A DNA stretch of 64,000 nt from a virus. The notes under the pieces are model-generated. The model was given only the letters and a program-made list of their open reading frames with translations. It had not been told where the DNA came from and made no database searches. Positions 3,151-62,016 of this stretch are shown piece by piece. Numbering within the stretch: position 1 is the stretch's first letter; every line of letters begins with the position of its first letter. The stretch is from positions 192,001 to 256,000 of IMG/VR virus record IMGVR_UViG_3300045988_179014; one strand, written 5' to 3'. Made by a program: the position numbers and the translations under genes.

Positions 3151-3161
3151 TTCAAGACCTC

Positions 3162-4682: not shown

Positions 4683-4710
4683 GCCCTTCTCCAGTGGTCA
4701 GTAGGAAAAA

Positions 4711-5070: not shown

Positions 5071-5183
5071 TGTTCCTGCTCCATGTAGAAGGTTTATTTA
5101 AATCAGATGCAACATCTTTTCTAATTGTTGTAAACTCAATTCTGTTTGCAATATCGAAATGATTGCTGTTTAAACAAAACAAT

Positions 5184-6923: not shown

Positions 6924-6976
6924 TTGCTTGGTTTATTAGGCTAATGGCAATATCAATACCTAATACCAGCAAAACA

Positions 6977-9391: not shown

Positions 9392-9410
9392 TATCGTTTC
9401 CTCCGTTGTT

Positions 9411-31477: not shown

Positions 31478-31831
31478 ATGATTGTTCTGATTGATGATGA
31501 GCGCAGCTTCCGTTCCCATGTTGCTGTGGATGATTTATTGGTGTTTCGTCATTCTGGTGAAGCATTGAATTGGCTTACACAGGCTCAGAACATTGAAGTT
31601 GACCAATTGTGGTTGGACCATGATTTGGGCAGTATGAATGAAACAACCGATAGCGTGATGCCAGTTGTGAAAGAACTGGTCAACATGGTGAGAAACCACA
31701 CTGCTCCGAAAATCCATCAGGTGGTGGTTCATACAGCCAACCCAATAGGAGCACAGAACATTGTTGGATATCTGTCTCCATATTTTCCTGTTGTACGTGT
31801 CAGAGCCAATGACTACCTCACAGTTACATGA
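31478..31831 (+). CDS. Stand-alone receiver(REC)-like domain protein
   Basis: MIVLIDDE ... LDHDLG ... SVMP resembles a CheY-like fold with degenerate acidic pocket residues; one of few plus-strand genes. Confidence 0.35.
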   Translation: MIVLIDDERSFRSHVAVDDLLVFRHSGEALNWLTQAQNIEVDQLWLDHDLGSMNETTDSVMPVVKELVNMVRNHTAPKIHQVVVHTANPIGAQNIVGYLSPYFPVVRVRANDYLTVT

Positions 31832-34576: not shown

Positions 34577-34649
34577 GGTGCTTCTGGCGGGAATCGAACC
34601 CACTTACGCGGTTTTAGGGACCACTGCTTGACCATTAAGCTTCAGAAGC
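34577..34649 (-). tRNA. tRNA with anticodon CUA (amber-suppressor-like), 71 nt + CC, atypical C33
   Basis: Minus-strand cloverleaf folded by hand: acceptor GCUUCUG/CAGAAGC, D arm GCUU-AAUGGUC-AAGC, anticodon arm GUGGU-CCCUAAA-ACCGC, 4-nt variable loop, T arm GUGGG-UUCGAUU-CCCGC, discriminator A. The loop reads C-C-[CUA]-A-A. Confidence 0.6.
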
Positions 34650-34702: not shown

Positions 34703-35482
34703 TCAACTGTTTGTAAAATCAGTTTCGGCTGTCAAAGCGGTTTTTGCCAGTCCTGGACGACGTAGTGGAGGATAGATTTCTGATGCGTCCCCTGCCCGAT
34801 ATAAGTCTGATGAACGTCCACCAACAATACTTGACGTGCGTTTTGTCCCCACCTCATACAGTAATCCTGGTACTGATTGAAGTTTACGACGAAAATTGCT
34901 TGGAATGATGGAAACTCCCCACACTATTTCATAGACTCGACGTAATTCTGACATGGTGAATGTTTCATCTTCCAAAAAATGATGAGCAATGGGGCTGTAC
35001 TTAATTTTGGCTCGAACCCGCTCCAGCCCATCATGAACAATGACATCATGGTCAAATGCCAACTCAAAATCATCACTGAGAACGTCTGCAACAGGGAAGA
35101 AATGAGCTTCTGCGGCATCATCTCCGGCTTTTGGCCGTTCTACTTGTGGAGCCAATGCCACATATGCTGTAGATACCACAAAACCTCGTGGGTCTCTACC
35201 AGGATTGCCGTAGGTTTTCAACTGTTCCAAGTAGCCATCTTCAATGGTTAAATTAGTTTCTTCCTTCAACTCGCGGGCAGCTGCATCATCCAACGATTCA
35301 TTGGTGTTAACAAAGCCCCCGGGAAGCGCCCATTTTCCTTTATTCGGATGGTCACCACGTTTTATCAACAAAATACATAGTTGCCCATTCCGGATTGTGA
35401 AAATTATCAAGTCAACTGTCACACCAACAGATGGATAGTCTGACATGTTATAACCAGCCAGAAAATCTTCTTCATCAATCAT
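34703..35482 (-). CDS. NrtR-like Nudix protein (Nudix ADP-ribose pyrophosphatase domain + C-terminal winged-helix)
   Basis: Nudix box GGFVNTNESLDDAAARELKEETNL (Gx5Ex7REUxEE). The C-terminal region, including NFRRK, resembles the NrtR DNA-binding domain. Confidence 0.55.
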   Translation of the reverse strand: MIDEEDFLAGYNMSDYPSVGVTVDLIIFTIRNGQLCILLIKRGDHPNKGKWALPGGFVNTNESLDDAAARELKEETNLTIEDGYLEQLKTYGNPGRDPRGFVVSTAYVALAPQVERPKAGDDAAEAHFFPVADVLSDDFELAFDHDVIVHDGLERVRAKIKYSPIAHHFLEDETFTMSELRRVYEIVWGVSIIPSNFRRKLQSVPGLLYEVGTKRTSSIVGGRSSDLYRAGDASEIYPPLRRPGLAKTALTAETDFTNS

Positions 35483-35551: not shown

Positions 35552-35758
35552 CTACCATTGCTCTGATTGAGTGATTTTATGATTGAGTCGATGATGCCAT
35601 GTTATGTGAACAGTTCTATTGGCAACCAAAGAACCACATAGAACACAGATTGATAGCACAGGTGATTCTCCGGTTTTAGGATTCAATACTGGTAGCCTCA
35701 CAAATTCTGGAACTGGGAATGATTTGAGACCCCAAGGAGATTGGCTATCTTCATTCAT
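35552..35758 (-). CDS. Small hypothetical protein (68 aa, Cys/His-containing), translationally coupled to pncA
   Basis: 4-nt overlap with the upstream pncA ORF; CVLCGS...HITWHH could bind metal. Confidence 0.3.
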   Translation of the reverse strand: MNEDSQSPWGLKSFPVPEFVRLPVLNPKTGESPVLSICVLCGSLVANRTVHITWHHRLNHKITQSEQW

Positions 35759-36345
35759 AGTATCTCAACGCCTGCTTTAAGAAAATCGTTAGTCAACAAT
35801 TTACGAACCTGTTCATTGTTAATTCCTACACAGAATCTTGACAAAATAGTAGTATGTAACCCTTCACGTACTGCATCCAAAGCCGTTTCTCGGACACAAT
35901 AATCAGTTGCAATACCCACGATAGCCACATTGTTTACGCCGAGTTCACGAAGCGCAGCAGCCAATGTTGTTCCATCTTCGGTCATTCCTTCAAAACCTGA
36001 ATAAGCTGCTGCAAACATACCTTTATGTACAGCAATAGAAACTCCACGTCCTCGCTCAGCATCTTTTCGTAATGCATTTGCTAAAGTTGGTACAAGACCT
36101 GCTCCTTCAGTATCAGCTACACAATGAACCGGCCAAGAATCAACAAAATCAGGGTTACTGGAAAAATGCGAACCTGGTTCAATATGCCAATCCTGAGTAG
36201 TGACCAGATAGTCATATTCATTCAAAGTCCCGTCATTAATCGCATCAGCCAAATCATGTGCAAGTTGAGACCCACCAGTAACGGCTAATGCTCCACCCTC
36301 TACGAAATCGTTCTGCACGTCCACAATAATCAATGCTGTGTTCAT
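35755..36345 (-). CDS. pncA: Nicotinamidase / isochorismatase-family hydrolase (PncA-like)
   Basis: ALIIVDVQNDF, catalytic-type residues (D..K..C in ...VHCVADTEG...), ~196 aa. Confidence 0.65.
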   Translation of the reverse strand: MNTALIIVDVQNDFVEGGALAVTGGSQLAHDLADAINDGTLNEYDYLVTTQDWHIEPGSHFSSNPDFVDSWPVHCVADTEGAGLVPTLANALRKDAERGRGVSIAVHKGMFAAAYSGFEGMTEDGTTLAAALRELGVNNVAIVGIATDYCVRETALDAVREGLHTTILSRFCVGINNEQVRKLLTNDFLKAGVEIL

Positions 36346-36346
36346 A

Positions 36347-36895
36347 TCATATTCCTGATTTTCTGCTTGTCCAGTTTAAATGTTCTTTCGCCCAGTCCAA
36401 TATACGAATGATATGTTTCAACTCAAGTCCATTGTGACTATTTGGTTGAATAACCAATGATGGCGCCAAGGTATTACCACGTACATGGTCTTCCCAAAAC
36501 TGTGGCGCTTTGTCATCTATCCAAACAAAAGGTCGTGGATTGTGTTGTTGGTGGTCTATGATGTAGTCTGCTTTCCACCGTGTCCAAGCTTTATAACCTT
36601 TTGTTTGAACATCAAAATTGGCAGGACTGTGTTGTGACAAATCTGCAAGACCCATTATTTCCGCTACTTTGCAAATATTGGCACCATCATTCCAAGTTGT
36701 GTGCCAAATGGAATCAAAACATCCAGTTGACAAAAGCTGCGATATCAATTGGACCGATTCCGGATTCCAATTGATTTGCGTTTTATGTGACAAAATTTCG
36801 CTATTATGTGTAGCGATACGTGCCCTAGTCGTGTTTGACGATGGCGTAATATTGTACACACCGTTGAAATCTGAGTATATTACAAAATTCATCAC
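36347..36895 (-). CDS. Hypothetical protein inside the NAD-salvage operon (possible HAD-like phosphatase)
   Basis: VIYSDFNGV weakly resembles HAD motif I; FVWIDDKAP resembles motif IV. Tightly packed between pncA and pncB. Confidence 0.3.
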   Translation of the reverse strand: MMNFVIYSDFNGVYNITPSSNTTRARIATHNSEILSHKTQINWNPESVQLISQLLSTGCFDSIWHTTWNDGANICKVAEIMGLADLSQHSPANFDVQTKGYKAWTRWKADYIIDHQQHNPRPFVWIDDKAPQFWEDHVRGNTLAPSLVIQPNSHNGLELKHIIRILDWAKEHLNWTSRKSGI

Positions 36896-37211: not shown

Positions 37212-38507
37212 TTATTTTTCAACAACTTCAAACATGGGTTTTCCCGCAGAAGTCAACAATGCCTCTTTGGGCAGAGTACTCAGAGTGTACGCATGAAAAG
37301 CACGAGATTCCTCTATTGTTGGAATATGGTAGTTTCCTTCATTGACATACATTATTTGTACAGGATGAATTGAACCAGATGCGATATCGTCATGCTTCAA
37401 CGACCCAATTCGATAGTATTCACCAGTCATGATTCCATGGTCATAGGTGCGATAAGCTATTTTCAGCCCGCCAGTGGTTTTCTTCCCAGATGCATTTTTC
37501 GCTACTGGAACCATCTCTCCATTACTGTTTTCCCGTTCTACCAATTTGAACACCATTGAAGCAGTTGGATGACCTGAACCAGTTACCACACGAGTTCCGA
37601 CACCAATCCCATCAACTGGTGTTCCTTGGTCAACAAGTTCCGCAATAGTGTATTCATCAATGTCCGAGGAAAGAATAATTTTAGTGTTCACAGCTCCAAG
37701 TTCATCCAACAGGTTACGAGCTTTGACGGTTTCTTCATGCAAATCCCCAGAATCTATACGAATACCACCCAAACTAGGCCCAGCAACTTCTATTGCATTA
37801 CGAATACCTTGTTCAATGTTATATGTATCCACCAGTAATGTAGTTTCAACACCCAATGCATCAATTTGTGCTTGGAAAGCAGATTTTTCATCCTCAAAAT
37901 CTAATGTGAACGCATGGGCTGAAGTGCCAGTGGTAGGAATACCATAACACAATCCAGCTTCCAAATTTGATGTGGCACTGAAACCAGCAATATATGCAGC
38001 ACGAGCAGAATCAATAGCTGCCTTCTCATGAGTACGTCGTGAACCCATCTCAATCAGTGGCAGTCCTTGAGCGGCCACAACCATTCGTGAAGCAGCTGAC
38101 ATTACAGCAGAATCGTGGTTCAGGATGGACAATAGTATGGTTTCCAACAAAACAGCATCACCAAAGAACCCTTCAACTGTCAGAATTGGACTGTTGGGGA
38201 AATAGACGTCCCCTTCACGATATCCTCTGATACGTCCACTGAATGTATAATCACGAAGATAATCAATCGTATCAGAATGAATCATTGGGTCATTTTTCAA
38301 CAAATCAAGCTGTTCTTCTGTGAACCTGAAATCCTTCACTGCTTTAACCGCCCTGTTGACACCTCCCACAACCCCATAACGGCGACCTTTGGGAAGTGTA
38401 CGAGCAAACAAATCAAATGTGGCTTTATCAAATGCATGACCTGATTCCAAAGCCGCTTGCAGCATTGTGATTTCATACTTGTCTGTTTGAAAGGCTGTAC
38501 TTGCCAT
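37212..38507 (-). CDS. pncB: Nicotinate phosphoribosyltransferase (PncB)
   Basis: N-terminal DKYEITMLQAALESGH...ATFDLFAR and 431 aa length are typical of bacterial NAPRTase. Confidence 0.7.
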   Translation of the reverse strand: MASTAFQTDKYEITMLQAALESGHAFDKATFDLFARTLPKGRRYGVVGGVNRAVKAVKDFRFTEEQLDLLKNDPMIHSDTIDYLRDYTFSGRIRGYREGDVYFPNSPILTVEGFFGDAVLLETILLSILNHDSAVMSAASRMVVAAQGLPLIEMGSRRTHEKAAIDSARAAYIAGFSATSNLEAGLCYGIPTTGTSAHAFTLDFEDEKSAFQAQIDALGVETTLLVDTYNIEQGIRNAIEVAGPSLGGIRIDSGDLHEETVKARNLLDELGAVNTKIILSSDIDEYTIAELVDQGTPVDGIGVGTRVVTGSGHPTASMVFKLVERENSNGEMVPVAKNASGKKTTGGLKIAYRTYDHGIMTGEYYRIGSLKHDDIASGSIHPVQIMYVNEGNYHIPTIEESRAFHAYTLSTLPKEALLTSAGKPMFEVVEK

Positions 38508-39439: not shown

Positions 39440-40642
39440 TCAATCCACGTTTTTCAGTTTCAACAATGCTGTCAAAGTCATTTCCGCATCTGCTAAAGCT
39501 CTATGCGCTCCTGTATAGGACTGTCCTGATGCTTCCACCAATGATTTGTTGGTGTTGTCAGGTGTTTCGGGCAGGAAGAATGTACTGACCATGCGAGTGT
39601 CCAATACTTCCAGCCCATTCGCTTGTAATGCATTGAAACCGAAAAGATTGTGCTGCAACTGTCCAATTTCAAATTTGGCATTATGCGCCACCATGACAGA
39701 ATCACTCAACATGGACAACACCTTGGTTTGCTTTTCTGGGTCATTCACGAAAACTTCTTTGTCTTTAATCTCATCCCATGAAATATGATGAACATGCTCA
39801 GCACCAGTACCATGAACTTTGGCGAAGTCTTGAGGAACTCCACTCATGAATGACATGGTTTCAACACGACCATCTGGATAACGTTTGACAATACCTACTT
39901 CAATGATGTTTGAATATGGACCTTTGTCAACATATCCACTCTCTTGAGAAGCGGCAACCTCCAAATCAATTGATACCAAAGGTTTATCTGTTCTCAAAGA
40001 CATATTGGCCCACATATGACGGTATGCCTCAGTGCGGGTCATTCCAGTTGCCATCAAATCATCAACTTGTTTCTTCACGTCTTCAGTTGACATGCCTGAA
40101 TACGAGGAAATCACTTGATTCGCGTCGGCCTCGTTTTCAGATGTGATATCAGGGTGGAAATTGTAAGGACCGTTCTTCTTCTTTTGTTGCCGTTTCCAAT
40201 CCTCAAATTTTGCTTGATTCAATGCTTTCTGGTCATCTCTTCGTTGTTGCAATTGGGCTCGTTCTTCAGAAGACATGTATCTTTCAGCTTCACGTTCTTT
40301 AGCTGTAGCCAAGAAATTCAATTGTTTGGCTTTTTGCACCGTCTGGAACCAACGAACACTGGCCAGAGCTTCTGGATTACCTTCAGCGGTTTTCAGTTCG
40401 TTGGCCAGTTTCCACATATTCCTTTTTGCAGCCCGAGATTTCAGAAACAACTCCTCTATTCGTTCAGCATTTGATGTTGAGGACTTGGACATTGTGTTCA
40501 CTACTTGATTGGACATTCTACGTTCATATGCGTCACGTGCTTCAGCTATAGAGTTGTAGTGGAACTCATCAGAATATGGGCATTGTCGTTTAGCAGAGCA
40601 ACGATTTACAACACCATTTTGAGGGTTTAAATGAAATAACAT
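39440..40642 (-). CDS. HCCH-like N-terminal module fused to a DnaQ/epsilon-like DEDDh 3'-5' exonuclease
   Basis: N-terminus LFHLNPQNGVVNRCSAKRQCPYSDEFHY..EARDAYE. C-terminus VSIDLEVAAS (Exo I), HNAKFEIGQL (Exo II), HRALADAEM (Exo III). Confidence 0.6.
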   Translation of the reverse strand: MLFHLNPQNGVVNRCSAKRQCPYSDEFHYNSIAEARDAYERRMSNQVVNTMSKSSTSNAERIEELFLKSRAAKRNMWKLANELKTAEGNPEALASVRWFQTVQKAKQLNFLATAKEREAERYMSSEERAQLQQRRDDQKALNQAKFEDWKRQQKKKNGPYNFHPDITSENEADANQVISSYSGMSTEDVKKQVDDLMATGMTRTEAYRHMWANMSLRTDKPLVSIDLEVAASQESGYVDKGPYSNIIEVGIVKRYPDGRVETMSFMSGVPQDFAKVHGTGAEHVHHISWDEIKDKEVFVNDPEKQTKVLSMLSDSVMVAHNAKFEIGQLQHNLFGFNALQANGLEVLDTRMVSTFFLPETPDNTNKSLVEASGQSYTGAHRALADAEMTLTALLKLKNVD

Positions 40643-41051
40643 GCCATCCTCCTATTTCAATCTTACATAGTTTGTATCTAACGATTCAACTACTCATGAT
40701 TCTTTCAAGAAGTACAGTTAACCGTGATTCTGACTGATAGTGAAATCGTAGCACGCAAACGAGCAATGTTGACTACAAAATAATATTGCGTTTCCTATTA
40801 TGCCCAAACCATCCTGAAATGACTCCAATGAATGCGTGAATATGCAATTATATTTCGAATTATGGAAAGCACAAACCAAGCTCCTAGAAGTGTTTTGAGC
40901 GTGATTTTGAAGGTATCACGAAGAAGCATTTCACGTAAAACTTCTTGAAAACACGAAAAACGCCCCCGAATAGGCTTGGTAGAATCTGGGCTATTCAAGG
41001 GGCGCTACAGAAAGCGATTTTATGGTTTTCTCATACACTCATTTTATGGTT

Positions 41052-42095
41052 TCATTCCTCCATACCTTGAACATAATCGTAATAAGTCTCTGCGGCTACT
41101 GACAGCTCAGCTTGATAACGATTTTCCAGATTTGATTTGACATCGTACTGTAAAGCTTCATATCCCTTGAATGCTCCAAGAAAAGCTCCGCCAACAGCTG
41201 CTAAACTATCAGAATCACCATTGGTCCACACCAACCGTTGAATCCCTTTGTAGATGCTTCTAGAGCTGTATGCTGCAACAGCAATAATGGCGTTGTACAA
41301 TGTCTCATCCGCTACCCAACCTTCCCCAAAGAAAGAGGTCATGTCGGCTTGTGTGGGAGCATCCAGAAAATCATCCCATTTGAGGCCAAGTTGAGACAGC
41401 CCATCTCTTAGATGCTGAACACCATCTTGAGCATCCTGAACCAAATTACTAGGCATCTTGGCAATTTCGCTCAACACCAACTTGGCATAATGAATGAACT
41501 TTGGCCCAAGAACGTTTTCACTGTCCATATTGAGCAGGTCTCTGGTGAGAAGTGCTGCAAGAGCAGACGCAATCCAACCCACATGACTTCCATGAGTTGT
41601 CTGGGCTTGGATGATAGCAAGGTATACGACTGTTTCGCGGTTATACGGCAATGCTCCAAACCAAGGAGCCCGCATTACTGTTCCACAACCATTGCTATTG
41701 TTGGTTGCTCCCTCCATACCAGTAGATACATTACGAGTATTAAGATATGTTCCCAATGCTCGCATGCATGTCATACCAGGAGCGCGGTTATTCTCAAGGT
41801 CATAGTAGAAATCCACATGATGTGACGCAAAAATCATACGAATCTGGTTTTGCAAGTCCACATTCTGACCTAGTTCTTTCAAATCATCTGATGAATACCG
41901 TTTCATCATGTCTTTGATTGCGGCCAGATTGTATAGACTCATCTGTGTGTCATCAGAAACACGAAGAACATGTGGAGGTTTCACCTTGTTGCGTACAATT
42001 TGTGGATATTGCATGAACTCAGTAACATATCCCCATGCATCACCAAATGCAAACCCATATATCATACCGTCAATTTTGTTCTGGGAAATAACCAT
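41052..42095 (-). CDS. ADP-ribosylglycohydrolase (ARH/DraG/Tri1 family)
   Basis: GMIYGFAFGDAWGY and VSDDTQMS motifs; ~347 aa. Confidence 0.7.
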   Translation of the reverse strand: MVISQNKIDGMIYGFAFGDAWGYVTEFMQYPQIVRNKVKPPHVLRVSDDTQMSLYNLAAIKDMMKRYSSDDLKELGQNVDLQNQIRMIFASHHVDFYYDLENNRAPGMTCMRALGTYLNTRNVSTGMEGATNNSNGCGTVMRAPWFGALPYNRETVVYLAIIQAQTTHGSHVGWIASALAALLTRDLLNMDSENVLGPKFIHYAKLVLSEIAKMPSNLVQDAQDGVQHLRDGLSQLGLKWDDFLDAPTQADMTSFFGEGWVADETLYNAIIAVAAYSSRSIYKGIQRLVWTNGDSDSLAAVGGAFLGAFKGYEALQYDVKSNLENRYQAELSVAAETYYDYVQGMEE

Positions 42096-42226
42096 ATATT
42101 CTCGCTTTCTGTAGACTCCTCATCTGTTCAAATACTAAAACACGATTTTTGAGAGATTGGGTTCTTGTCTCTTGTTGCTGTGTATAGTATTGTCAATTAT
42201 GAGACTTGTACACCATTCATCAATGT

Positions 42227-42406
42227 TCAAGAAACCACTTTACCATCATCATCGAACTGAACCGCATGTTCTACTGGACGGGGAAGGTCTGCATGACGTT
42301 CAGGTCGTAACGCCATAGTCTCCAAATTGGCGTCAGTTGTGTCCTTGCTTCCACTTGTGTTAGGATGTTCCACGTTGAGGATGTTGTCAATCGGATTATT
42401 AGTCAT
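42227..42406 (-). CDS. Small ORF (59 aa) between the ART triplet and the ARH, with strong Shine-Dalgarno
   Basis: Read directly from the DNA: AAAGGAG, 7 nt, then ATG ACT AAT AAT CCG ... TGA. Just below the 60-aa threshold of the ORF track. Confidence 0.35.
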   Translation of the reverse strand: MTNNPIDNILNVEHPNTSGSKDTTDANLETMALRPERHADLPRPVEHAVQFDDDGKVVS

Positions 42407-42465
42407 TGAATACTCCTTTAGTTATTTATTGGCTTTTCAACTTTACCATGTTGTTTAATCTTGTG

Positions 42466-43707
42466 TCAAGCTTGTTCATCATTATCCGAAATAGACTTAC
42501 TTGGTATAGGGTCGGTTTGGGTGAAGGAATTAGTCCCATCCAAGATTTCGCCTTTGTCATTAATAGCGACCAACTGAACTATTGTTGTTGTGCCTTTGTC
42601 ATCTTCTGAACATTTGACATTTTTGTGCACACCAACAACCACGTAACGTGCTCGTCTTGGGAGAACCACTTCACGTTCACGTTCATATAGACTGACGTCA
42701 GTAACATTTACTCCTTCAGGTGTTAAAATCTCGTAAATCAAACCATCTTCGTACTCTGAATATTTATGTGCAACATCAAAAGATAAACTAGCGGATTGGT
42801 ACCCATCAAACACAACCTCTTTCCCCAAAGGCATGTTCTGGTCTACCCAATTACTGACACTACCTGCTTCATCGAATACAGAAGAATCCGCCTTCTTTCC
42901 GCGATAAAGAATTCGTTGTCTTTTAGGACCACGACTTAACGCATCATCCAAGACGCTACATATTTTGTCTATTGTTTCTTTGGTGCGAAACTTGGGCGAA
43001 ACACTAAACCCTGACAGATGAATGTTTTGTTGGTTATCTTCGTCGAATATTCCATACCCTTCTTCAGCAAATTTCTTATACGACTCATCCGGTTCTGGCA
43101 ATTCAGTATTTCTGCCATATAGAATGTTGTTGAACCACTCATAACTGTTAGAAGTGAAAAATCTGGCGGCTAATTTCTCATTCACACTTAATTTACGTAA
43201 TTCAATCTCTGATAACTTGCGTATAGTGCGAACTGGTAGCCCAATTGGTTGGTATTCATTTGGATTCTCATGCGGATTTTGAAAACCAAAAACTGAATAA
43301 GACTCTTCATTCAAATTATTGTAATTGATGATACCTCTCACATAATGAGGTGCCAAATATCCTGCTTTCACCAAATTACCACTCTGTTTTTGATAAGTAA
43401 TATTGAGCGATTCGTCTGTATAGACTTTTTTGTATAGTCTCACACGAGCCTTCCCAGCCAACTCGGCCAGTCTCTTATCATCGTAGTTATCAAAGTTGAA
43501 CTCGACAGCAGAGTATATATTTTTCATCTTTGGTGTAGATGTATTATCAGGAGCAGAAACACTACTCCTTGTTGAAGCAAGGATTGTTTCCGAAACTGAT
43601 GCAGCTTTTTTAGCGGCATAAGCTGCTCTCCGGCGAGCGTTCCGAGCTGCAATAGCTACTGGGTCTCTATGTGATGGACAACGACGTATTGAAGCTAAAC
43701 GACACAT
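42466..43707 (-). CDS. Mono-ADP-ribosyltransferase (C2/C3/iota/VIP2-like R-S-E class), paralog 3
   Basis: ILYRGK (Arg motif), GYQSAS (STS-like), EREVVLPRRARY (ExE + EVLLPR-like ARTT region). Shares the N-terminal leader MCRLASIRRCPSH.DPVAIAARNARRRAAYAAKKA. Confidence 0.65.
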   Translation of the reverse strand: MCRLASIRRCPSHRDPVAIAARNARRRAAYAAKKAASVSETILASTRSSVSAPDNTSTPKMKNIYSAVEFNFDNYDDKRLAELAGKARVRLYKKVYTDESLNITYQKQSGNLVKAGYLAPHYVRGIINYNNLNEESYSVFGFQNPHENPNEYQPIGLPVRTIRKLSEIELRKLSVNEKLAARFFTSNSYEWFNNILYGRNTELPEPDESYKKFAEEGYGIFDEDNQQNIHLSGFSVSPKFRTKETIDKICSVLDDALSRGPKRQRILYRGKKADSSVFDEAGSVSNWVDQNMPLGKEVVFDGYQSASLSFDVAHKYSEYEDGLIYEILTPEGVNVTDVSLYEREREVVLPRRARYVVVGVHKNVKCSEDDKGTTTIVQLVAINDKGEILDGTNSFTQTDPIPSKSISDNDEQA

Positions 43708-43713
43708 GTAACA

Positions 43714-44940
43714 TTACTCCCTGTTCTCAAACGGGTCGGTTTTTGGAGAGGCATTTGTTCCATCCAAGATTTCACCTTTCTCATTAATGGCCACCAACTG
43801 AACTATGGTTGTCATACCTTCGTAATCTCCTGGACATTTGACATTTTTGTGTACACCAACAACCACATAACGTGCTTGTCTTGGAAGAACTACTTCACGC
43901 TCGTTTTCATATTTACTAACGTTGGTAACATTTATTCCTTCAGGCGTTAAAATCTCATAAATCAAACCAGAACTACCTGAATATTCACATGCAACATCAA
44001 AAGATTGACTAGCAGATTGGTAGCCATCAAATACAACCTCTTTCCCCAAAGGCATATTCTGGTCCACCCAGTTACTAACGCCACCAGCCTTATTAAAGAT
44101 TGAGGAAAAACCTGGCTTTCCACGATAAAGAATTCGTTGTCTTTTAGGACCACGACTTAACGCATCATCCAAGACACTACATATTTTCTGCACTGTCTCT
44201 TCTGTACGGTATTCAGGCGGAATACTAAAATTTGATGCATAAGCGTCTTCTTGGTTGTCTTCGTCGAATATTCCATACCCTTCTTCAGCAAATTTCTTAT
44301 ACGATTTATCGGGTTTTGGCAATTTAGTATTTTTCCCATATAGAATACTGTTGAACCAATCATAATTGGTAGAAGTGAAAAATCTAGCAGCCAATAATTC
44401 ACTCACATTTAATGCATCCAACTCAACTGCTGACAAATCACACACAGTATGAACTGGTAACTCAATTGGTTGGTACCCATCTGGATTCTCATGCGGATTT
44501 TGAAAACCAAAAATTGAGTAAGACTCTTCATCCAAATTATTGTAATTGATAACGCCTCTCACATAACGAGGAGCCAAATATCCTGCATTCACCAAGTTGC
44601 CGCTCTGCTTCTGATAAGTAATATTGAGCGACTCATCTGTATCGACTTTTTTGTATAGTCTCACACGAGCTTTACCCTCCAATCCAGCCAGTCTCCCATC
44701 ATCATATTCATCAAAATCAAACTTGACAGCAGAGTATATATTTTTCATCTTTGGAGCAGGTGTATTATCAGGAACAGAAACATTGCCACTTGTTGGGGCA
44801 ACATTTGTTTCCGAAACTGATGCGGCTTTTAGCGCAGCCTTTTTCGCAGCATAAGCGGCTCTTCTCCGGGCGTTACGCGCCGCAATAGCCACTGGGTCAC
44901 TATGAGATGGACAACGGCGAATAGAAGCTAAACGACACAT
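43714..44940 (-). CDS. Mono-ADP-ribosyltransferase, paralog 2
   Basis: RILYRGK, GYQSASQSF, ENEREVVLPRQARY; N-terminal leader nearly identical to paralog 3. Confidence 0.65.
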   Translation of the reverse strand: MCRLASIRRCPSHSDPVAIAARNARRRAAYAAKKAALKAASVSETNVAPTSGNVSVPDNTPAPKMKNIYSAVKFDFDEYDDGRLAGLEGKARVRLYKKVDTDESLNITYQKQSGNLVNAGYLAPRYVRGVINYNNLDEESYSIFGFQNPHENPDGYQPIELPVHTVCDLSAVELDALNVSELLAARFFTSTNYDWFNSILYGKNTKLPKPDKSYKKFAEEGYGIFDEDNQEDAYASNFSIPPEYRTEETVQKICSVLDDALSRGPKRQRILYRGKPGFSSIFNKAGGVSNWVDQNMPLGKEVVFDGYQSASQSFDVACEYSGSSGLIYEILTPEGINVTNVSKYENEREVVLPRQARYVVVGVHKNVKCPGDYEGMTTIVQLVAINEKGEILDGTNASPKTDPFENRE

Positions 44941-44942
44941 GT

Positions 44943-46064
44943 TTACTCCTTGTTCTCAAACGGGTCAGTTTTCGGAGAGGCATTCGTTCCATCAAGAATC
45001 TCTCCTTTATCATTGATGGCAACCAATTGAACTACGCTTATTGGCCCGCTACCGGATGAAGCCATTCGTAAATCATTGTGCACCCCAACCACCAAATAAC
45101 GAGATTGTCTTGGTAACAGAACTTCTTTCTCATCCAAGAAGTCGCTGATAGATGAAATGTTAACACCTTCAGGAGTCATGATTTCAAAAACAAGACCACC
45201 ATTAGAACCAACATATGTTTTGGCAACTTCTAAATCAACACTGGATGATTGGTACCCATCGAATTTAAGCTCTTTACCCAAAGCAATGTTTTCGCTCATC
45301 CACTTTTCTAGGCCTCCAGCTTGTCTGATGAATTTGCTTTCAGCATCTACACAGCGATAAACAATTCGATTAATTTTAGGACCTTTTTCAAGTGCGCTGT
45401 CCAAAACTTTACATGTGTTACGAACTGTTTCTTTTGTACGCATTTCAAGAGGAATGTTAAAACTCATGATATAGTGCACATCTGAATAATCATTAACGAA
45501 TTCAGTTTTGGCATTACCTTCCACAACCTCGACCAAACAAGTCTCATTACCATGAAGAGCCCCATTGAACCATTCGTATTCATTGGTTGTAAAAAACCGA
45601 GTCGCTACTTGTTCTGGTAGCGACAACTTAGTCACTTCCTGCTTAGACAACTCAATTACTCGATTTGCCGGAATTGTCCTTCGTGAAAAACATTGCCTTT
45701 TGAACGGCATCTTGCCAAATCCAAATTCCATGTAACTGTTTTCATCAATGTTTTTGTGATTGATAACACCATGAAAAGTTTTCTCAGCAAAATACCCCAA
45801 CTGCACTAATGCCCCATTGTATTTATCTAAAGTTAAGTTTAGTTTCTGGTTGTTTTCAGTTGATACAGACTTGAACAAGATGTCCCCAGATTCTCCTTGA
45901 AATTCACCATCGAATGTACGAGAAGCGACAATTCCTGAAGTATTTGACTCTTGTGAAGCTTTTTCTAGTTTTCTGGCATGATAACGTTCTCGTCTCCGGG
46001 CGTTCCGGGCTGCAATAGCTACTGGGTCACTATATGATGGGCAACGTCGATTTTTTCTACACAT
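44943..46064 (-). CDS. Mono-ADP-ribosyltransferase, paralog 1 (more diverged)
   Basis: RIVYRC, GYQSSS, DEKEVLLPRQSRY; N-terminus MCRKNRRCPSYSDPVAIAARNARRR. Confidence 0.6.
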   Translation of the reverse strand: MCRKNRRCPSYSDPVAIAARNARRRERYHARKLEKASQESNTSGIVASRTFDGEFQGESGDILFKSVSTENNQKLNLTLDKYNGALVQLGYFAEKTFHGVINHKNIDENSYMEFGFGKMPFKRQCFSRRTIPANRVIELSKQEVTKLSLPEQVATRFFTTNEYEWFNGALHGNETCLVEVVEGNAKTEFVNDYSDVHYIMSFNIPLEMRTKETVRNTCKVLDSALEKGPKINRIVYRCVDAESKFIRQAGGLEKWMSENIALGKELKFDGYQSSSVDLEVAKTYVGSNGGLVFEIMTPEGVNISSISDFLDEKEVLLPRQSRYLVVGVHNDLRMASSGSGPISVVQLVAINDKGEILDGTNASPKTDPFENKE

Positions 46065-46178: not shown

Positions 46179-46811
46179 TCAAATAATACGTTTTGTACTG
46201 TCATTCTTGTCAACAGTGTGCACATCCCCGCCAATGAATCCAATAGTGATGTGAAAATCCTTGGGCGGCAACCCTGCATTTCGTCGCCAAGCATTCATGA
46301 CAGGCGATTTGACCAATATGTACCAAGCTTCTTTTTCCCCATCTCTTACACTGCCAACCCCATCCAATGTGAAAGACATGGAAGTATCAACAGGCAATGA
46401 AACACCAGATTTACGAAGCTGTCTGGTTTCTTTGGGAGTTAACAAAGTCACGTGAAAATAATAACCACCATCGCGTTGTATTTTTGCTGTCTCCATGGCC
46501 TCTGCTGTTTCAGCTCCTACATGTTGCCGCCATGCTTGCAAATGCTCTTGTAAAAGAGTCTCAGAAACCTTGACACCAACATATGAGTTATATTTCAAAC
46601 CTTGTGCCACGTTTTTGAACTCAGTTTGTGGCAATCCAACCCGAACCGACTGTTTCCGTAAACGTTTCAACGGCTCTTGGCTATTGTGGTAGGCTTTTTC
46701 GGCATCTGACAAACTGTTGAAATGTTCACCCTTCTTGCGACAATTCCCTGGTTTGGCTATACATGGTTTAGGCCCGTCATCCGTCATATGGTACATGGTC
46801 CTATTCCTCAC
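46179..46811 (-). CDS. HCCH-like N-terminal module fused to a 2H phosphoesterase (LigT/CPDase-like)
   Basis: N-terminus MYHMTDDGPKPCIAKPGNC...HF. Two H-x-T-x motifs: FHVTL and FHITIG. Confidence 0.6.
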   Translation of the reverse strand: MRNRTMYHMTDDGPKPCIAKPGNCRKKGEHFNSLSDAEKAYHNSQEPLKRLRKQSVRVGLPQTEFKNVAQGLKYNSYVGVKVSETLLQEHLQAWRQHVGAETAEAMETAKIQRDGGYYFHVTLLTPKETRQLRKSGVSLPVDTSMSFTLDGVGSVRDGEKEAWYILVKSPVMNAWRRNAGLPPKDFHITIGFIGGDVHTVDKNDSTKRII

Positions 46812-47966
46812 TCAAATTTTTGTTCTACACACGGGTCCGATGTTTCCGTGTTTAAGAGGCTGTCCACAACGTATACAACAACCTGAATTCCAAACAGTGG
46901 TTACCGCAGGTTCAGGATATGAAGACACTGTGGAAGGGTCCTGTGGCTCAGTGTGTTCAACTGTTGAAACCAATAATCCTTCCCGTTGGAACATTTGTAT
47001 CACACGAGGACGGTCATCAATAGCACCAACTACAGCAAAACCTTCAGCTCGCAGTTTTTTCAACTGTTCTAGCTTGTATTCTGTATCAGTACGATAATCA
47101 TTCAACCGTTTCAGCAACAATTTACTAACCGGGGCATCAACACGTTCCAGAAAATTAATGGTCTCTTGTGCATAGTTATCCGTTCTTCCAGACAATGCAA
47201 CAATGTTTATACCTTCAGCTCGCATTTCACGAATCAGATTCAATACTTGTGTGTTAACTGGAGCATATTCAGCCGCTTTGTGGAACTTGTGAAAATTCTT
47301 CTTCTGCCCAGGAACACCAAAAGCCTCATTCATATCTTTTTGGTTGTGAGCCAATGTCCCATCCAAATCCACCAACATAATAGCATTCCCTATCATTGGA
47401 TAACGTTGAGACATTTCCTCATCAAATTTCGCTATCCGGTCCATGCCATCAGTGTGAAACGGAACCACTGACACTTTTCCAGATGTTTTGGAGACAATGT
47501 ATTCTTTCAAATGCCCCTTGTCATCATAAGCTTTCTGGGCCATAGCATCAATAACATGTTCTGGAACGCAACGCCCACCTTGTTGACCACGAACAATATT
47601 TCGCTGTTTACACACATCAACAGGAACATCAAAATACAACTGTTCAATCTCAGCATTGTAGATTGAGGCCAAATTGTGCAAATGTTCCACCACGTTACGA
47701 TTCAAATTGGTATCATCTGAGATAACATGTTTTCCAGCAGCCAATCCTTGACGAATCAACTCATCCTGCACTGCTGTTACCTGTTCTTCACATTTCTTGC
47801 GAGGCGATTGGTTATGATACTCGCTACCGAACAACGCAGTACGAATGTCATCACGATTCACACGAACAGTGTTTTCAGGGTCAGACGCAACCATTTGTTC
47901 TGCCTGAGTGCTTTTACCCGACCCTGGAAGCCCGTGCGTCATGGTGAAACGCGGATTACCGCTCAT
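46812..47966 (-). CDS. Polynucleotide 5'-kinase/3'-phosphatase (T4 Pnk-like) with C-terminal zinc-ribbon tail
   Basis: GLPGSGKST, VNRDDIR, ISDDTNLN (kinase); MLVDLDGTLA, ALSGR, AIDDRPRVIQMFQREG (HAD phosphatase). Collinear with T4 Pnk motifs. C-terminal CCIRCGQP...CRTK. Confidence 0.85.
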   Translation of the reverse strand: MSGNPRFTMTHGLPGSGKSTQAEQMVASDPENTVRVNRDDIRTALFGSEYHNQSPRKKCEEQVTAVQDELIRQGLAAGKHVISDDTNLNRNVVEHLHNLASIYNAEIEQLYFDVPVDVCKQRNIVRGQQGGRCVPEHVIDAMAQKAYDDKGHLKEYIVSKTSGKVSVVPFHTDGMDRIAKFDEEMSQRYPMIGNAIMLVDLDGTLAHNQKDMNEAFGVPGQKKNFHKFHKAAEYAPVNTQVLNLIREMRAEGINIVALSGRTDNYAQETINFLERVDAPVSKLLLKRLNDYRTDTEYKLEQLKKLRAEGFAVVGAIDDRPRVIQMFQREGLLVSTVEHTEPQDPSTVSSYPEPAVTTVWNSGCCIRCGQPLKHGNIGPVCRTKI

Positions 47967-48029: not shown

Positions 48030-48563
48030 TCAAGATTTAACAATCATTGGACGCCCATCAATACCTGTCCTAATACCTTGATGCTCATAATATTTGGCCC
48101 GTAACATTTCTGAAACAATCCGAGTGTTACGTACAGTAGCTTTTACCAGTTCTTTACTCTTGGTTCGCAGGAAAATCTTGCTTCGTTTCAACATTTTTCG
48201 ACGATATGCTTTCAAAGCCGCTATACGGTCACGTCTACGTTGCTGACGCACAATATTGCGAACATTGGGTGTGTAACGTTTTATGGCACGATAATTCATA
48301 ACAAAACGCACAGCAGCATTGTCCTCACCCAATTTCTCCATTTTTCTGTAATAACGTTGGATAGGTGATTGACCAATGTTACGTGCTACAACTTTTCCAA
48401 CCAGTTCGCCATATTCTTGGGTCATTTTGGCTTCATAAACCGCTTGGGCTTCTTGTTGATTGTCAAAATGCTTTCCACCTTGGGCAGCATATGGACATGT
48501 TCCTGCTACCACTTTGCACAGACGTGGTCCATCATTGGTTATATGATAAAGCCTCATACTCAT
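48030..48563 (-). CDS. HCCH-like N-terminal module fused to a basic Arg/Lys-rich C-terminus (possible nucleic-acid binding)
   Basis: N-terminus LYHITNDGPRLCKVVAGTCPYAAQGGKHF..EAQAVYE; C-terminus highly basic. Confidence 0.5.
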   Translation of the reverse strand: MSMRLYHITNDGPRLCKVVAGTCPYAAQGGKHFDNQQEAQAVYEAKMTQEYGELVGKVVARNIGQSPIQRYYRKMEKLGEDNAAVRFVMNYRAIKRYTPNVRNIVRQQRRRDRIAALKAYRRKMLKRSKIFLRTKSKELVKATVRNTRIVSEMLRAKYYEHQGIRTGIDGRPMIVKS

Positions 48564-50320: not shown

Positions 50321-51325
50321 TCATCGAGGTTTTACTATCAATGCCTCATCACTGAGATGTATGCTTGTTTCATATGACAATGGCTGATTGGAACTTATGA
50401 TTACTTCATCCCAGAAACGGTCACTTCCAGTACATCCACCATATGGTTCTCCCACATTGACAATAGTGACATGTGGGTAATCATCTTTTACCATTTGAAC
50501 TAATTTTGCATCAATGGTATTATCATAGGGCGCCCACACAATAGCCAAGTGTGTAATTGAGTCCCCGTATTTTCTCAATGCATCCTGAGCATCCATCTGT
50601 TCCAACCCTTGAGACAACTGCCAGGAATTATCATCCGTTCCAATGGTTTTAACCCCTTCATCTCGTAAGGCCTTCACCAGATATCCTTTACCTGCCATGG
50701 GGTCCAACAAAGTGCCATTTCCCACCACTCTGGCCAAAGATTTCGCAAACTTTCGTGTAACTTTGGCATAGTATCCTGTCTCACACAACAATGAATGAGC
50801 CATCGTACTTACTGCATAATTTTCCTGCATTTGTTTCGGCAGTTCATTTGGGATTTCACCGTTGATGATTTTTACGCAATATTCTTCAGATTCAACATCT
50901 AGAGACTCCCCCAATGATTCCAATGTTGATTTGATGTCATTCAAATACTCCAGTTTGTCTGAAGCTGGCGTTATGATGACTGGTTCAATCCAATCATTAT
51001 TTTTCTGGCGGGACATGGTTTTACAAGAAGTTCCTCCACATTGAGATTTCATACGTTTCTCAAATGCGACTTGTGCCGCTTGGAGTGTTTGGTAATGAGA
51101 ATCATCCGTATTTCGTGTTATGGGACAATTACCAGGTTGCGCATAACACCTTTTGGGACCAATGGCTGTAAGGTGATAAATGGCAGTGGTCATGGTTTCT
51201 CCTATTACTGTTAAGCATGCAGCAATGTCACACATAATACGAATTACAAACAACATATAGTTTCTAAGGCGATGCATAGTTGTATCCAATACTGGTACAA
51301 CATGCTGAGGTTTCACAACATCCAT
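50321..51325 (-). CDS. HCCH-like module fused to a Rossmann-fold SAM-dependent methyltransferase (possible DNA/RNA MTase)
   Basis: YHLTAIGPKRCYAQPGNCP...HY motif. The real start is probably the internal Met of MTTAIYH. Motif I LLDPMAGKG, acidic TIGTDD, WAPY (degenerate (D/N)PPY?). Confidence 0.45.
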   Translation of the reverse strand: MDVVKPQHVVPVLDTTMHRLRNYMLFVIRIMCDIAACLTVIGETMTTAIYHLTAIGPKRCYAQPGNCPITRNTDDSHYQTLQAAQVAFEKRMKSQCGGTSCKTMSRQKNNDWIEPVIITPASDKLEYLNDIKSTLESLGESLDVESEEYCVKIINGEIPNELPKQMQENYAVSTMAHSLLCETGYYAKVTRKFAKSLARVVGNGTLLDPMAGKGYLVKALRDEGVKTIGTDDNSWQLSQGLEQMDAQDALRKYGDSITHLAIVWAPYDNTIDAKLVQMVKDDYPHVTIVNVGEPYGGCTGSDRFWDEVIISSNQPLSYETSIHLSDEALIVKPR

Positions 51326-52872: not shown

Positions 52873-54063
52873 TTGGAGGCCCATCCTATGTATCACATCA
52901 ACGATAAAGACGAATCGAAACGCTGTTATGCCAAAAGCATGGAAAGGTGTCGATTCTACCGTGCTGATGACCCTCGACACTATGAAACCGCAGAAGAAGC
53001 CCAACAAGCAGCAGAGGAAAGGATAAGAAAGAAAGCGTTGAAAGAAGGGCATGGAACCACCAATTCCTTGAGTAAACGCACCATGAATGAACATGATGAC
53101 AAAGACATTAATTTTGCTGGAATGGAACGTGATGAACGTACTCGCCAAATGCAGGAAACTCTTGACCGTGAGGTTGAACAACTAATCAAAGATGGACGAT
53201 TGGCAAAATTCTTGGATGCGATGTCCAAAAATGGGGTACAGAGATGGAGCGCCAACAACATTCTGTTAGCAGCTCTGCAATTGCGCTCATATCGGAAACG
53301 AAACGGATTACCAGTTACCAACAATCTATTTGACACCATAAATGAACTTGATGCTTGTGGAGCCAAACAATGGAATGAACGAGGACGTAAAGTCATCTCT
53401 GGAAAAGGTTCAGCTCTTTACATTCTGGCACCATTACAACGCAAATATCCTGTTAAAGACGCTCAAGGTAATCAATTAGTGGATGAAAACGGCCAACCAG
53501 TCATGCAACGTTACACATATGGTTGGCGTTCTGTAGCTGTTTTTGATGTCAGTCAAACAGAAGGTGAACCAGTTCCTCAGAATCCACTACAAATGAAACC
53601 CGTCACTACAAAAATCAAATCGCAATATGTGGATGACATGAAGAATGTGGTTCAATCATATGGATACAAAGTCGTTCATGCGGAAACAGCGTCAGACCCA
53701 GAAAGATTGAAAGGAACTTTGGGCGCGACCAATCCCACCACAAAAGAAGTGACAATAGACCCTCGTTTATCAGAAGCGCAACAAGCGGCTGTTCTAGCAC
53801 ACGAATTAGGCCATATTGCAATGGGGCATTTGGATGAGGATATGCAGGAATATGTAAAACATAGAGGAATTAAGGAAACTGAAGCTGAGGCGCTTGGTTA
53901 CATGTTGCTGCAAAGAGCTGGACTTGGACCAAAGGAAGGCGCCGCATTCTCAGCTCCTTATGTTGCAGGTTGGTCTAAAGGTGATATGAGTATGGTGCGT
54001 ACAGCTTTGAATAAAGTCACTAGTCGTTTCGGTAAACTGATGGATATATTGAAATGGGATTGA
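52873..54063 (+). CDS. HCCH-like module fused to an ArdC-like antirestriction protein (ssDNA-binding N-domain + HExxH metallopeptidase)
   Basis: N-terminus MYHINDKDESKRCYAKSMERCRFY..HYETAEEAQ; C-terminal AVLAHELGHIAMGH zinc-metallopeptidase motif, as in ArdC. Confidence 0.55.
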   Translation: MEAHPMYHINDKDESKRCYAKSMERCRFYRADDPRHYETAEEAQQAAEERIRKKALKEGHGTTNSLSKRTMNEHDDKDINFAGMERDERTRQMQETLDREVEQLIKDGRLAKFLDAMSKNGVQRWSANNILLAALQLRSYRKRNGLPVTNNLFDTINELDACGAKQWNERGRKVISGKGSALYILAPLQRKYPVKDAQGNQLVDENGQPVMQRYTYGWRSVAVFDVSQTEGEPVPQNPLQMKPVTTKIKSQYVDDMKNVVQSYGYKVVHAETASDPERLKGTLGATNPTTKEVTIDPRLSEAQQAAVLAHELGHIAMGHLDEDMQEYVKHRGIKETEAEALGYMLLQRAGLGPKEGAAFSAPYVAGWSKGDMSMVRTALNKVTSRFGKLMDILKWD

Positions 54064-61452: not shown

Positions 61453-62016
61453 TTATGGATACACAATGACAGAGGTGACAAAGCTCCAAGGAACATACTG
61501 GGTTAGAATCACATCATTCAAGGTTTTGTAAAACTTCAATCCTGCTGCTTGCATTGCATTACCATCAATGCTCAGTACAACAGGTATGCTCTTATGTTGA
61601 CGGGCAGCAGATAATGCTATTTTCTCATCTGATGACAAATGCACAAACAGTCGTGAACCAGGAACAATACCCCATTCACGGATAGTGCCTACTTTTGATG
61701 CTGTGGTGCCATGATAAATAGTTCCAGGATTGTCAACTGAATCTAATTCTATGGTTATTGGAATAGAATGTCCTTCAGTAGCCCAAACACGACCATTAAC
61801 AACAGCATAATGACCACTGCTATCTTCATCAACAATTTTATGAATCATGCTTTCAGAAGTGTTCAATGCTTTGGCTAAATCTGTAACTTCAACTGAACCA
61901 TCCTGGTGCATATCAACTTGATACTGTTCAGGAGCATGACATAGGGCCTGATTCATTTGTTGGGACAATTCAGTCAATTCCATGTCTCTCCTCAATTCCT
62001 CGATATCATTGTTCAA
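61453..62016 (-). CDS. kptA: RNA 2'-phosphotransferase Tpt1/KptA
   Basis: IYHGTTASKVGTIREWGIVPGSRLFVHLSSDEKIALSAARQHKSIPVVLSIDGNAMQAAGLKFYKTLNDVILT is collinear with E. coli KptA (LYHGT ... HYVHLSADE..A..VG.RHG.PVIL.V ... GV.LT). Confidence 0.8.
   Translation of the reverse strand: MNNDIEELRRDMELTELSQQMNQALCHAPEQYQVDMHQDGSVEVTDLAKALNTSESMIHKIVDEDSSGHYAVVNGRVWATEGHSIPITIELDSVDNPGTIYHGTTASKVGTIREWGIVPGSRLFVHLSSDEKIALSAARQHKSIPVVLSIDGNAMQAAGLKFYKTLNDVILTQYVPWSFVTSVIVYP

Follow-up and report, generated by a model that had tools for sequence, protein, structure and literature searches.

The 64,000-nucleotide stretch of DNA analysed here (positions 192,001 to 256,000 of the IMG/VR virus record IMGVR_UViG_3300045988_179014; hereafter the window) carries on its minus strand three tandem ADP-ribosyltransferases (ARTs) that begin with a basic leader peptide and are followed by a small acidic protein and an ADP-ribosylglycohydrolase (ARH). 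The locus is best read as a diversifying battery of arginine-directed mono-ADP-ribosyltransferases, that is, as a fast-evolving effector arsenal. Judging from sequence comparisons, and with somewhat less than even confidence, we propose that the ARTs would be directed at the host and have diversified targets, that the ARH would reverse or limit their action and that the small protein would bind the shared leader.

All five open reading frames (ORFs) of the cassette lie at the coordinates that an earlier note on this DNA had given them, on the minus strand. ART1 (44943-46064; 373 amino acids, aa) is an R-S-ExE mono-ADP-ribosyltransferase with matches to PF03496 (E-value 3.6e-10) and PF01129 (9.7e-8). 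ART2 (43714-44940; 408 aa) starts 2 nt past the ART1 stop and is followed by ART3 (42466-43707; 413 aa), the small acidic protein (42227-42406; 59 aa) and the ARH, a member of the DraG/ARH family (41052-42095; 347 aa; PF03747, 7.3e-37). With successive intergenic gaps of 2, 6, 59 and 131 nt, the five genes form a tightly packed, operon-like cassette on one strand. Within their last codons ART1 (44943-44960) and ART2 (43714-43731) contain the Shine-Dalgarno sequence (AAGGAG or AGGGAG) for the ART gene after them, which implies translational coupling, and the C-terminal tails of the two proteins (...FENKE in ART1, ...FENRE in ART2) are near-identical because their codons encode the Shine-Dalgarno sequence of the following gene. 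A terminator-like hairpin with a U-run is predicted by RNA folding 46 nt past the ARH stop (40950-41006, minus strand; -20.2 kcal/mol, z = -2.05 relative to shuffles, then UUUUUCGUGUUUU); it is the probable, though only suggestively supported, 3' end of the transcription unit, and a promoter and terminator scan returned nothing exceeding shuffles. The cassette is far beyond what chance would produce, since 69 aligned relatives have a common architecture.

The earlier note described three C2/C3/iota-like paralogs with an R-S-E triad; Pfam, Foldseek and profile alignment bear this out and place the three R-S-ExE enzymes in the C2/C3/VIP2 class of structures. ART1, ART2 and ART3 score 39.9, 24.5 and 28.6 bits on PF03496 (ADPrib_exo_Tox), all above the gathering score of 23.4, which ART2 exceeds only narrowly; PF01129 is a secondary match, and these were the only two Pfam families found among the ARTs, with no match to the DraT family. 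The catalytic motifs are R237 (in VYRC), S273 (in GYQSSS) and E312/E314 (F309-x-x-E-x-E, FLDEKE) in ART1; R273, S309 (in GYQSAS) and E347/E349 (Y344-x-x-E-x-E, YENERE) in ART2; and R269, S305 (in GYQSAS) and E344/E346 (Y341-x-x-E-x-E, YERERE) in ART3. The first motif had been given as (L/V)YRG, which does not hold for the VYRC of ART1, while the other triad motifs are present in all three proteins. The GYQS(S/A)S motif is an S-x-S form in which Ser or Ala stands for the middle Thr of Ser-Thr-Ser. Among the 69 sequences Y303, S305, E344 and E346 (ART3 numbering) are invariant and R269 is kept in at least 90%. ExE marks ARTs that modify arginine (PMC8120803), and its presence in the ADP-ribosylating toxin turn-turn (ARTT) loop suggests that the three enzymes are arginine-specific. 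The three proteins align end to end; ART2 and ART3 are recent duplicates, as their 78% identity indicates, and ART1 is the most divergent of the paralogs, with 45-49% identity to both.

AlphaFold2, run on 69 relatives, gives ART3 a confident model (predicted local distance difference test, pLDDT, 84.8; predicted template modelling score, pTM, 0.83). Its top Foldseek matches are Certhrax, Vis, Plx2A, C3bot, VIP2 and iota Ia, with C2-I and CDTa also found, at E-values of ~1e-8 and with template modelling (TM) scores of up to 0.67 when normalised to the single-domain C3; the comparison of the ART core to C3 and iota that the earlier note had proposed thus gives clear matches to both. There were 122 Protein Data Bank (PDB) matches at E<=1e-3, and among the matches listed 50 of 50 were ART toxins. 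In the model, strand 265-271 holds YRG and strand 304-307 holds QSAS, while ExE comes just ahead of and in strand 346-349; these strands are those expected for beta-1, beta-2 and the ARTT loop/beta-5, so far as predicted topology can place the residues in the cleft. The profile of the ART family finds Certhrax in the PDB at 1.1e-8, and its alignment lays YRG, GYQSxS and ExE onto YRR/NYMSTS/QYE of Certhrax, GYMSTS/EKE of VIP2 and GYLSTS/EQE of ExoT. Model and profile therefore both put the Arg, Ser-Thr-Ser-type and ExE motifs on the strands where the earlier note's mapping check would look for them. A single-sequence PDB search with ART3 returned spurious poly-ubiquitin repeat matches only.

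Each ART is built of a leader of 33-35 aa, a variable linker, a small beta-rich N-domain and a catalytic domain of the C3/VIP2 fold, the ART3 model showing no more than three strands and some short helices ahead of residue 150; short-form relatives (280-330 aa) consist of leader and catalytic core and nothing else. We considered and set aside two familiar toxin types. An identity as the A component of a binary toxin (iota Ia, C2-I, VIP2, CDTa) does not fit alignments of ~240 columns, i.e., one domain, and TM scores of ~0.33-0.36 when normalised to the two-domain toxins; the ARTs have no hydrophobic signal sequence, and no protective antigen (PA)-like family was found among the neighbours scanned. 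C3 exoenzymes are single secreted domains of ~25 kDa with QxE and specificity for Asn; all three ARTs and 69 of 69 relatives have ExE, and the window proteins, at 373-413 aa, have extra N-terminal parts.

The leader, which we call type 1, consists of Met-Cys, 5-9 residues, Cys-Pro and then an Arg-rich helix, with the consensus M-C-(R)-x-(G-G-R-R)-C-P-x-x-x-D-P-x-x-x-A-x-R-N-A-R-R-R-A-x-Y-A over 69 relatives. It spans 45963-46064 in ART1 (34 aa; M-C-x5-C-P before the Arg-rich helix), 44836-44940 in ART2 (35 aa; charge ~+8, isoelectric point (pI) ~11.8) and 43603-43707 in ART3 (35 aa), all on the minus strand. It had been described as almost identical in all three proteins; that is true of ART2 and ART3, which have one difference in the first 33 aa, but not of ART1, which has a shorter variant (MCRKNRRCPSYSDPVAIAARNARRRERYHARK). 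C2 and C10 are invariant in 69 of 69 relatives, as are N23, A24, R27 and Y30 in an alignment of 19 leaders. Residues 1-15 are coil and 16-40 helix in the ART3 model, and column entropy over residues 1-30 (1.1-1.9 bits) is on a par with that of the catalytic core (0.9-1.5) and well below that of the linker (~3), so the leader is as conserved as the active site. At the DNA level the leaders of ART2 and ART3 have many synonymous differences: nonsynonymous and synonymous divergence (dN and dS) are 0.014 and 1.12 in the leader, 0.098 and 0.39 in the N-domain, 0.21 and 0.67 in the helical lobe and 0.113 and 0.53 in the core, giving a dN/dS of ~0.013 for the leader and of 0.21-0.31 for the remaining regions. 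Because so low a dN goes with so many synonymous differences, these codon comparisons point to purifying selection on the leader peptide and not to recent gene conversion.

The leader is a family-wide module tied almost solely to ART-type domains. A degenerate DNA pattern for it (ATGTGYMGN N{12,24} TGYCC N34 AAYGCNMRNMRNMGN N6 TAY) matched 32 loci in metagenomes and had 0 matches in IMG/VR. The link to ADP-ribosyltransferases follows from the proteins behind it, as 52 of the 58 leader-trimmed ORFs with at least 60 residues left match the ART profile, and the clear exception type (P0071, in L018) has the leader on a DUF3990/ART-PolyVal-like domain (PF13151/PF18760) that is also of the ART superfamily. 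A leader-only profile run against 5.8 billion proteins found one 54-aa protein, at a threshold too stringent for a 44-aa profile.

The 59-aa ORF, which the earlier note had listed with a strong Shine-Dalgarno sequence, is a real, conserved gene with AAAGGAG upstream of its ATG. Its product has a pI of 4.6, a charge of -6, an acidic tail and a core with the invariant residues P-R-x-V-x-H-A (LPRPVEHAVQFDDDG), for which we call it the PRPVEHA protein. Among 5.8 billion proteins the family has just 10 clusters, every one of them from contigs with ART arrays, and in related loci the gene always comes directly after the last ART; the small protein is a dedicated companion of the ART arrays. Charges are opposed, at -4 to -10 for the PRPVEHA family and ~+8 for the leader.

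The ARH scores 128 bits on PF03747 (ADP_ribosyl_GH), where the gathering threshold is 26.2. It keeps GDAWG (from residue 18) with E26, S47-D48-D49-T50, TTHG at 166 (T-H 167-168) and G293-D-S-D-S, the last of which aligns with GGDSDS of ARH1, and the same motifs are conserved in the orthologs of L005 and L007. The metal-coordinating and catalytic motifs that the earlier note wished to see checked are thus intact, and the motif checks on ARTs and ARH together favour the prediction that all are active enzymes. The best solved relative is human ARH1, which is Arg-specific (1.4e-7), ahead of the Ser- and poly(ADP-ribose)-specific ARH3 (3.7e-4); this hints at a specificity for Arg-linked ADP-ribose. 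With three ARTs and an intact ARH closest to an arginine-specific enzyme, the earlier interpretation of the cassette as writers with an eraser is reasonable. The hydrolase has no N-terminal extension and scores 18.7 bits on the NCBIfam equivalog model for Tri1, which has a cut-off of 490. The window, L007, L010 and L023 each have an orthologous ARH next to an array, and in L005 the ortholog lies 2.2 kb upstream with two genes between; no synteny of the ARH-flanking genes was found between the window and L005 or L007 beyond shared N-terminal modules.

The copy number of leader-bearing ARTs turns over fast between relatives. L010 and L031, from close relatives of the window element, have two ARTs, with one gene where ART2 and ART3 stand in the window; the window and L005 have three, L007 has five and L003 at least 11. 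Contig Ga0308158_10000009 (885 kb) bears ~47 leader-bearing short-form ART ORFs over many tandem arrays (loci L011, L014-L016, L023, L024, L027, L029, L030, L032, L034, L036 and L038-L040), L016 alone having 13 ARTs. Strain-level variation of the cassette, drawn from the window element's close relatives L010, L031, L013, L020 and L037, includes ART1 genes split into two ORFs in several strains (237+118 aa; 199 plus 193 or 209 aa), most of the pieces being found on 2-3 contigs. All ART family members from a cluster look-up are metagenomic, and a scan of GTDB species genomes with one ART-family pattern found no relative.

Two loci bear further mention. On the 885-kb contig there is a second tandem family of ~230-aa proteins, present in eight copies (L040, 1209-7010), which could be partners or immunity proteins. 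The sole 'viral' contig with a family member, a distant one, is the 209.7-kb IMG/VR UViG 3300008408_000061 (L008, 483-9289), where the ART neighbours are a 2,623-aa SpaA/LRR surface adhesin and a sortase, with a TnpB/Cas12f-like gene and a DUF805 protein a few kb downstream; no virion genes were found among the eight ORFs scanned there, and the viral classification of this contig seems doubtful.

We envisage that the ARTs would use NAD+ to ADP-ribosylate arginines on host-cell proteins. Because divergence among the paralogs is greatest beyond the leader and catalytic core, and copy number shifts quickly, the enzymes may have different targets in an arms race, for example in host takeover or anti-defence. 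The ARH, being of the DraG/ARH1 type, would strip ADP-ribose from arginine and so limit or reverse the modification, whether for self-protection of the carrier cell or for control of timing, and the PRPVEHA protein would most likely bind the basic leader, the sole feature common to all paralogs, as an inhibitor or a chaperone. Several observations weigh against this proposal. Adjacency of ART and ARH is just as characteristic of toxin-antitoxin or toxin-immunity pairs, and a basic, Arg-rich leader in an RNA-repair neighbourhood also fits nucleic-acid targets. The array of L003 has no ARH in ~7.5 kb downstream, and on the 885-kb contig an ARH is near one array only (L023) within the short stretches examined, so the eraser is not obligatory. 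Co-occurrence and charge are the whole basis for the proposed interaction between leader and PRPVEHA protein. Finally, a 725-kb contig and the 885-kb contig bear a class II aminoacyl-tRNA synthetase, a NadD-like gene and ICDH, as well as pilin-like genes; the family is therefore not limited to plasmid-like elements, and these two contigs may be small cellular genomes rather than extrachromosomal elements.

The window also encodes a second N-terminal module. This module of ~50 aa (YH...C.A....C[P/R]......H[F/Y]....EA..AYE, with the His, Cys, Cys and His invariant) is the shared N-terminus of at least seven otherwise unrelated ORFs in the window (14906-16135, 39440-40642, 46179-46811, 48030-48563, 50321-51193 and 57815-58792 on the minus strand; 52873-54063 on the plus strand), among them an RNase T-type exonuclease, a 2H phosphoesterase, an HD hydrolase, a RecE-like nuclease, a metalloprotease/ArdC-like protein and proteins of unknown function. 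The third ART of L005 bears the His-Cys-Cys-His module where the type-1 leader would be, so the two modules are positional alternatives; homology between them was considered and is unsupported (hhalign probability 0.8%, E-value 0.07). Proteins of 3,838 representative clusters contain the module, nearly always within residues 1-50. Pfam annotates only a minority of the partners fused to it, which include ARTs, zeta toxins, GNATs, nucleotidyltransferases, an RNA ligase, helicases and peptidases. It is modelled as beta-hairpin/helix/strand/helix (pLDDT 77.8), and a fold search with this model found no PDB match; neither leader type matches a Pfam family. A module this widespread, with no known function, merits study in itself. 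One protein among the 142 top module matches also matches, somewhere along its length, Pfam PF24331, a mycobacteriophage zinc-binding domain. Genes interleaved in or flanking the arrays of L003 (4071-4934, plus strand) and L005 (8161-9856, plus strand) start with Cys/His-rich segments that resemble the module, clearly in a 167-aa L005 protein and more loosely in the other two, which suggests that these ART arrays also sit amid other tagged proteins.

We read the element that carries the window cassette as giant, extrachromosomal and of conjugative type, with an uncultivated and probably Gram-positive host. This reading is based on conjugation genes, on recurrent contigs of 337-347 kb and on the lack of a phage match. 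The conjugation module spans 1431-11027 on the minus strand and includes a NikA-like protein (1431-2291), a GmrSD_C/HNH nuclease (2332-3150), a TcpF/VirB4-like ATPase (3162-4559; 1.1e-17), TcpC (5184-6923) and a TraD/VirD4-like coupling protein (6977-9391; 5.7e-21). Window proteins recur on the 337-347 kb contigs from several samples. When the cassette and neighbouring large proteins, the TraD-like one among them, were compared by megablast and tblastn with 50,697 phage records, there was no match at either the DNA or the protein level, and the 64-kb window showed neither structural nor packaging genes. The window, which also encodes DnaG, GyrB, ThyX and a deoxynucleoside monophosphate (dNMP) kinase, has a G+C content of 41%, 54 of 59 long ORFs on one strand and a coding density of 86%. 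Inocles are oral elements of ~245-370 kb with a G+C content of 24-32%; the size of our element fits theirs, and it is set apart from them on G+C alone.

Among other explanations, a toxin-antitoxin or addiction system is in our judgement unlikely. Here the ARTs would arrest growth of the carrier cell, with the ARH, the small protein or both as antitoxin, in the service of plasmid maintenance or abortive infection, and loss of the element or the stress of infection would free the ARTs. DraT/DraG and the ART-ARG pair of Aeromonas phages are precedents (PMC9503650; PMC8120803), a small acidic protein beside a toxin is a classic antitoxin layout, and in the window, L007 and L010 the ART array has the small protein and the ARH next to it in the same orientation; yet arrays of 3 to ~47 toxins with one antidote, or none nearby, are atypical, the ARH of L005 stands apart from its array, ART1 is pseudogenised in some strains with the rest retained, and ART1-3, the small ORF and the ARH match no defence-system model in PADLOC-DB. 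We likewise think it unlikely that the ARTs are exported toxins, in which the leader would be a trafficking tag to the type IV secretion (T4SS) or conjugation machinery for delivery into recipient or neighbouring cells, the small protein a secretion chaperone and the ARH a broad producer immunity, as Tri1 is for Tre1. A Tcp-type T4SS is encoded in the same window, secretion chaperones are typically small and acidic, and a constant N-terminal module ahead of a C-terminal toxin domain, repeated in arrays, resembles polymorphic toxins; one hydrolase could, moreover, guard against many Arg-directed ARTs, as the Tri1 precedent shows (PMC8120803). The L005 ART with the His-Cys-Cys-His module makes the two modules look functionally interchangeable, and the enzymes that bear that module (nucleases, 2H, zeta toxin, GNAT and peptidases) are of the 'conflict' type that is typically injected. 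Known T4SS signals, however, are C-terminal; neither a recognised trafficking domain nor any signal peptide or membrane-spanning segment was seen, no immunity genes are interleaved in the window, the type-1 leader is nearly confined to ART domains and so is not a mark of generic cargo, and the ARH, far below the cut-off of the Tri1 model, is without the occluding extension of Tri1.

A wider form of the export idea, which we hold to be distinctly improbable, would make both the type-1 leader and the His-Cys-Cys-His module tags for the transfer of effectors into another cell through a Gram-positive-type T4SS, with the PRPVEHA protein as a dedicated chaperone; the tagged effectors would then belong to giant conjugative-type replicons and possibly also to ultra-small episymbiotic bacteria. 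If true, this would be a previously unrecognised, N-terminally signalled system of effector translocation, with the ARTs as its hyper-expanded effectors (up to ~47). We give little credence to a further idea, compatible with the others, that the ARTs modify RNA or DNA and that the Arg-rich leader is a nucleic-acid-binding arm. The leader, an arginine-rich helix of such high pI, and the position of the cassette between RNA-repair genes (PNKP, 2H-SAK and Tpt1/KptA) are in keeping with this, and RNA-directed phage ARTs have been proposed (PMC9503650); against it stand the ExE ARTT motif and C3/VIP2 fold, which are typical of protein-arginine ARTs, and a DraG/ARH-type partner, whose characterised members act on protein-linked ADP-ribose. 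Least probable, and in our view very unlikely, is a phage set for host takeover like Alt, ModA and ModB of T4, in which the leader would target the capsid or be a propeptide and the ARTs would be packaged in virions. The ART model does match phage ARTs (MuF/portal-fused proteins and a T4-type 'RNA polymerase ADP-ribosylase', E-values 1e-6 to 1e-9; phrog_595), one distant relative is on an IMG/VR contig, and ~44% of phage ARTs surveyed occur in contexts that suggest head packaging (PMC9503650). The likeness to Alt and Mod is nevertheless no better than that to bacterial toxins, the IMG/VR contig has a sortase and adhesin and no virion genes in the region scanned, and the window combines conjugation genes with a lack of structural or packaging genes and of any match in the phage collection. 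For the window the phage explanation is largely refuted, and the T4-like takeover frame and the virion-packaging or propeptide role for the leader that the earlier note had modelled on Alt find no support.

The nearest known enzymes are the C2/C3/VIP2-type toxins (Certhrax, Vis, Plx2A, C3bot, VIP2, iota Ia and CDTa), which match the window ARTs in catalytic fold and in all three motifs (beta-1 Arg, Ser-x-Ser and the ARTT loop [Y/F]-x-x-E-x-E), although C3 and Certhrax carry QxE rather than ExE. The window ARTs differ in having 14-19% identity to these toxins, no signal peptide, their own leader and small beta-rich N-domain, and a tandem arrangement on a conjugative-type giant element. Tre1-Tri1 of the Serratia type VI secretion system (T6SS) and DraT-DraG also set an R-S-E arginine ART beside a DraG/ARH hydrolase able to reverse its action (PMC8120803), whereas here there are 3 to ~47 ARTs per hydrolase, or none nearby, and an extra small acidic protein between writer and eraser. 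Assignment to the Tre1-Tri1 type itself was rejected on the gap of 18.7 to 490 bits, the missing N-terminal occluding extension and the lack of T6SS markers. T4, with Alt, ModA and ModB, likewise has several Arg-specific ARTs in one mobile genome, but the structural similarity is generic, and the window stands out by its conjugative-type carrier and its tandem, leader-sharing paralogs of variable number, with no head-packaging context found; ART-ARG pairs resembling toxin-antitoxin systems have been reported in Aeromonas phages (PMC9503650). A polymorphic toxin system was also rejected, the leader having no Pfam family and the ARTs lying 2-6 nt apart with no interleaved immunity genes. Polyvalent proteins of phages and conjugative elements reportedly fuse ART, zeta toxin, nuclease, peptidase and 2H domains into one giant polypeptide. 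They have the same enzyme repertoire as the window, on a mobile element that needs to establish itself in a new host; in the window each enzyme is instead a protein of its own, headed by a short N-terminal module (type 1 on ARTs, His-Cys-Cys-His on others).

The pairing of an ART with an ARH is in itself already known. To our knowledge, however, reversible arginine ADP-ribosylation pairs (DraT/DraG, Tre1/Tri1 and phage ART-ARG) have been known only as one writer with one eraser. The unannotated family described here, found only in metagenomic assemblies, departs from that pattern in its tag, its arrays of 2 to ~47 enzymes and its acidic partner protein. What is new is the leader, the tandem and highly expandable arrays, the dedicated PRPVEHA protein and the giant conjugative-type carrier, and a literature search found no description of leader-tagged ART arrays with a PRPVEHA protein on such a carrier. 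If the paralogs differ in their host targets, they would offer a ready set of tools for modifying arginine and would reveal by what means giant plasmid-like elements bring their hosts under control or reprogram them; should the leader serve for targeting or translocation, it would represent a new form of effector addressing in Gram-positive-type conjugation systems.

Genes for NAD salvage and RNA repair surround the ART cassette. The NAD+/ADP-ribose part comprises cREC (31478-31831, plus strand) and, for NAD salvage, NUDIX-NrtR (34703-35482), a PncA-like isochorismatase (35755-36345) and NAPRT (37212-38507), while RNA repair is represented by HAD_SAK_2 (36347-36895), 2H-SAK (46179-46811, minus strand), PNKP (46812-47966) and Tpt1/KptA (61453-62016). 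A counter-defence repertoire of NAD+/ADP-ribose and RNA-repair functions has been catalogued for viruses, and the island in the window is of the same kind (PMC9503650). Such an island could recycle nicotinamide and ADP-ribose from the cycle of ARTs and ARH and heal cleaved tRNA. The window also encodes a tRNA with anticodon CTA (amber suppressor; 34577-34649, minus strand), which ARAGORN labels tRNA-Pyl, and TAG is the rarest stop codon in its 59 long ORFs (TAG 5, TGA 33, TAA 21); together the CTA tRNA and the rarity of TAG hint at tolerated or programmed read-through of amber codons.

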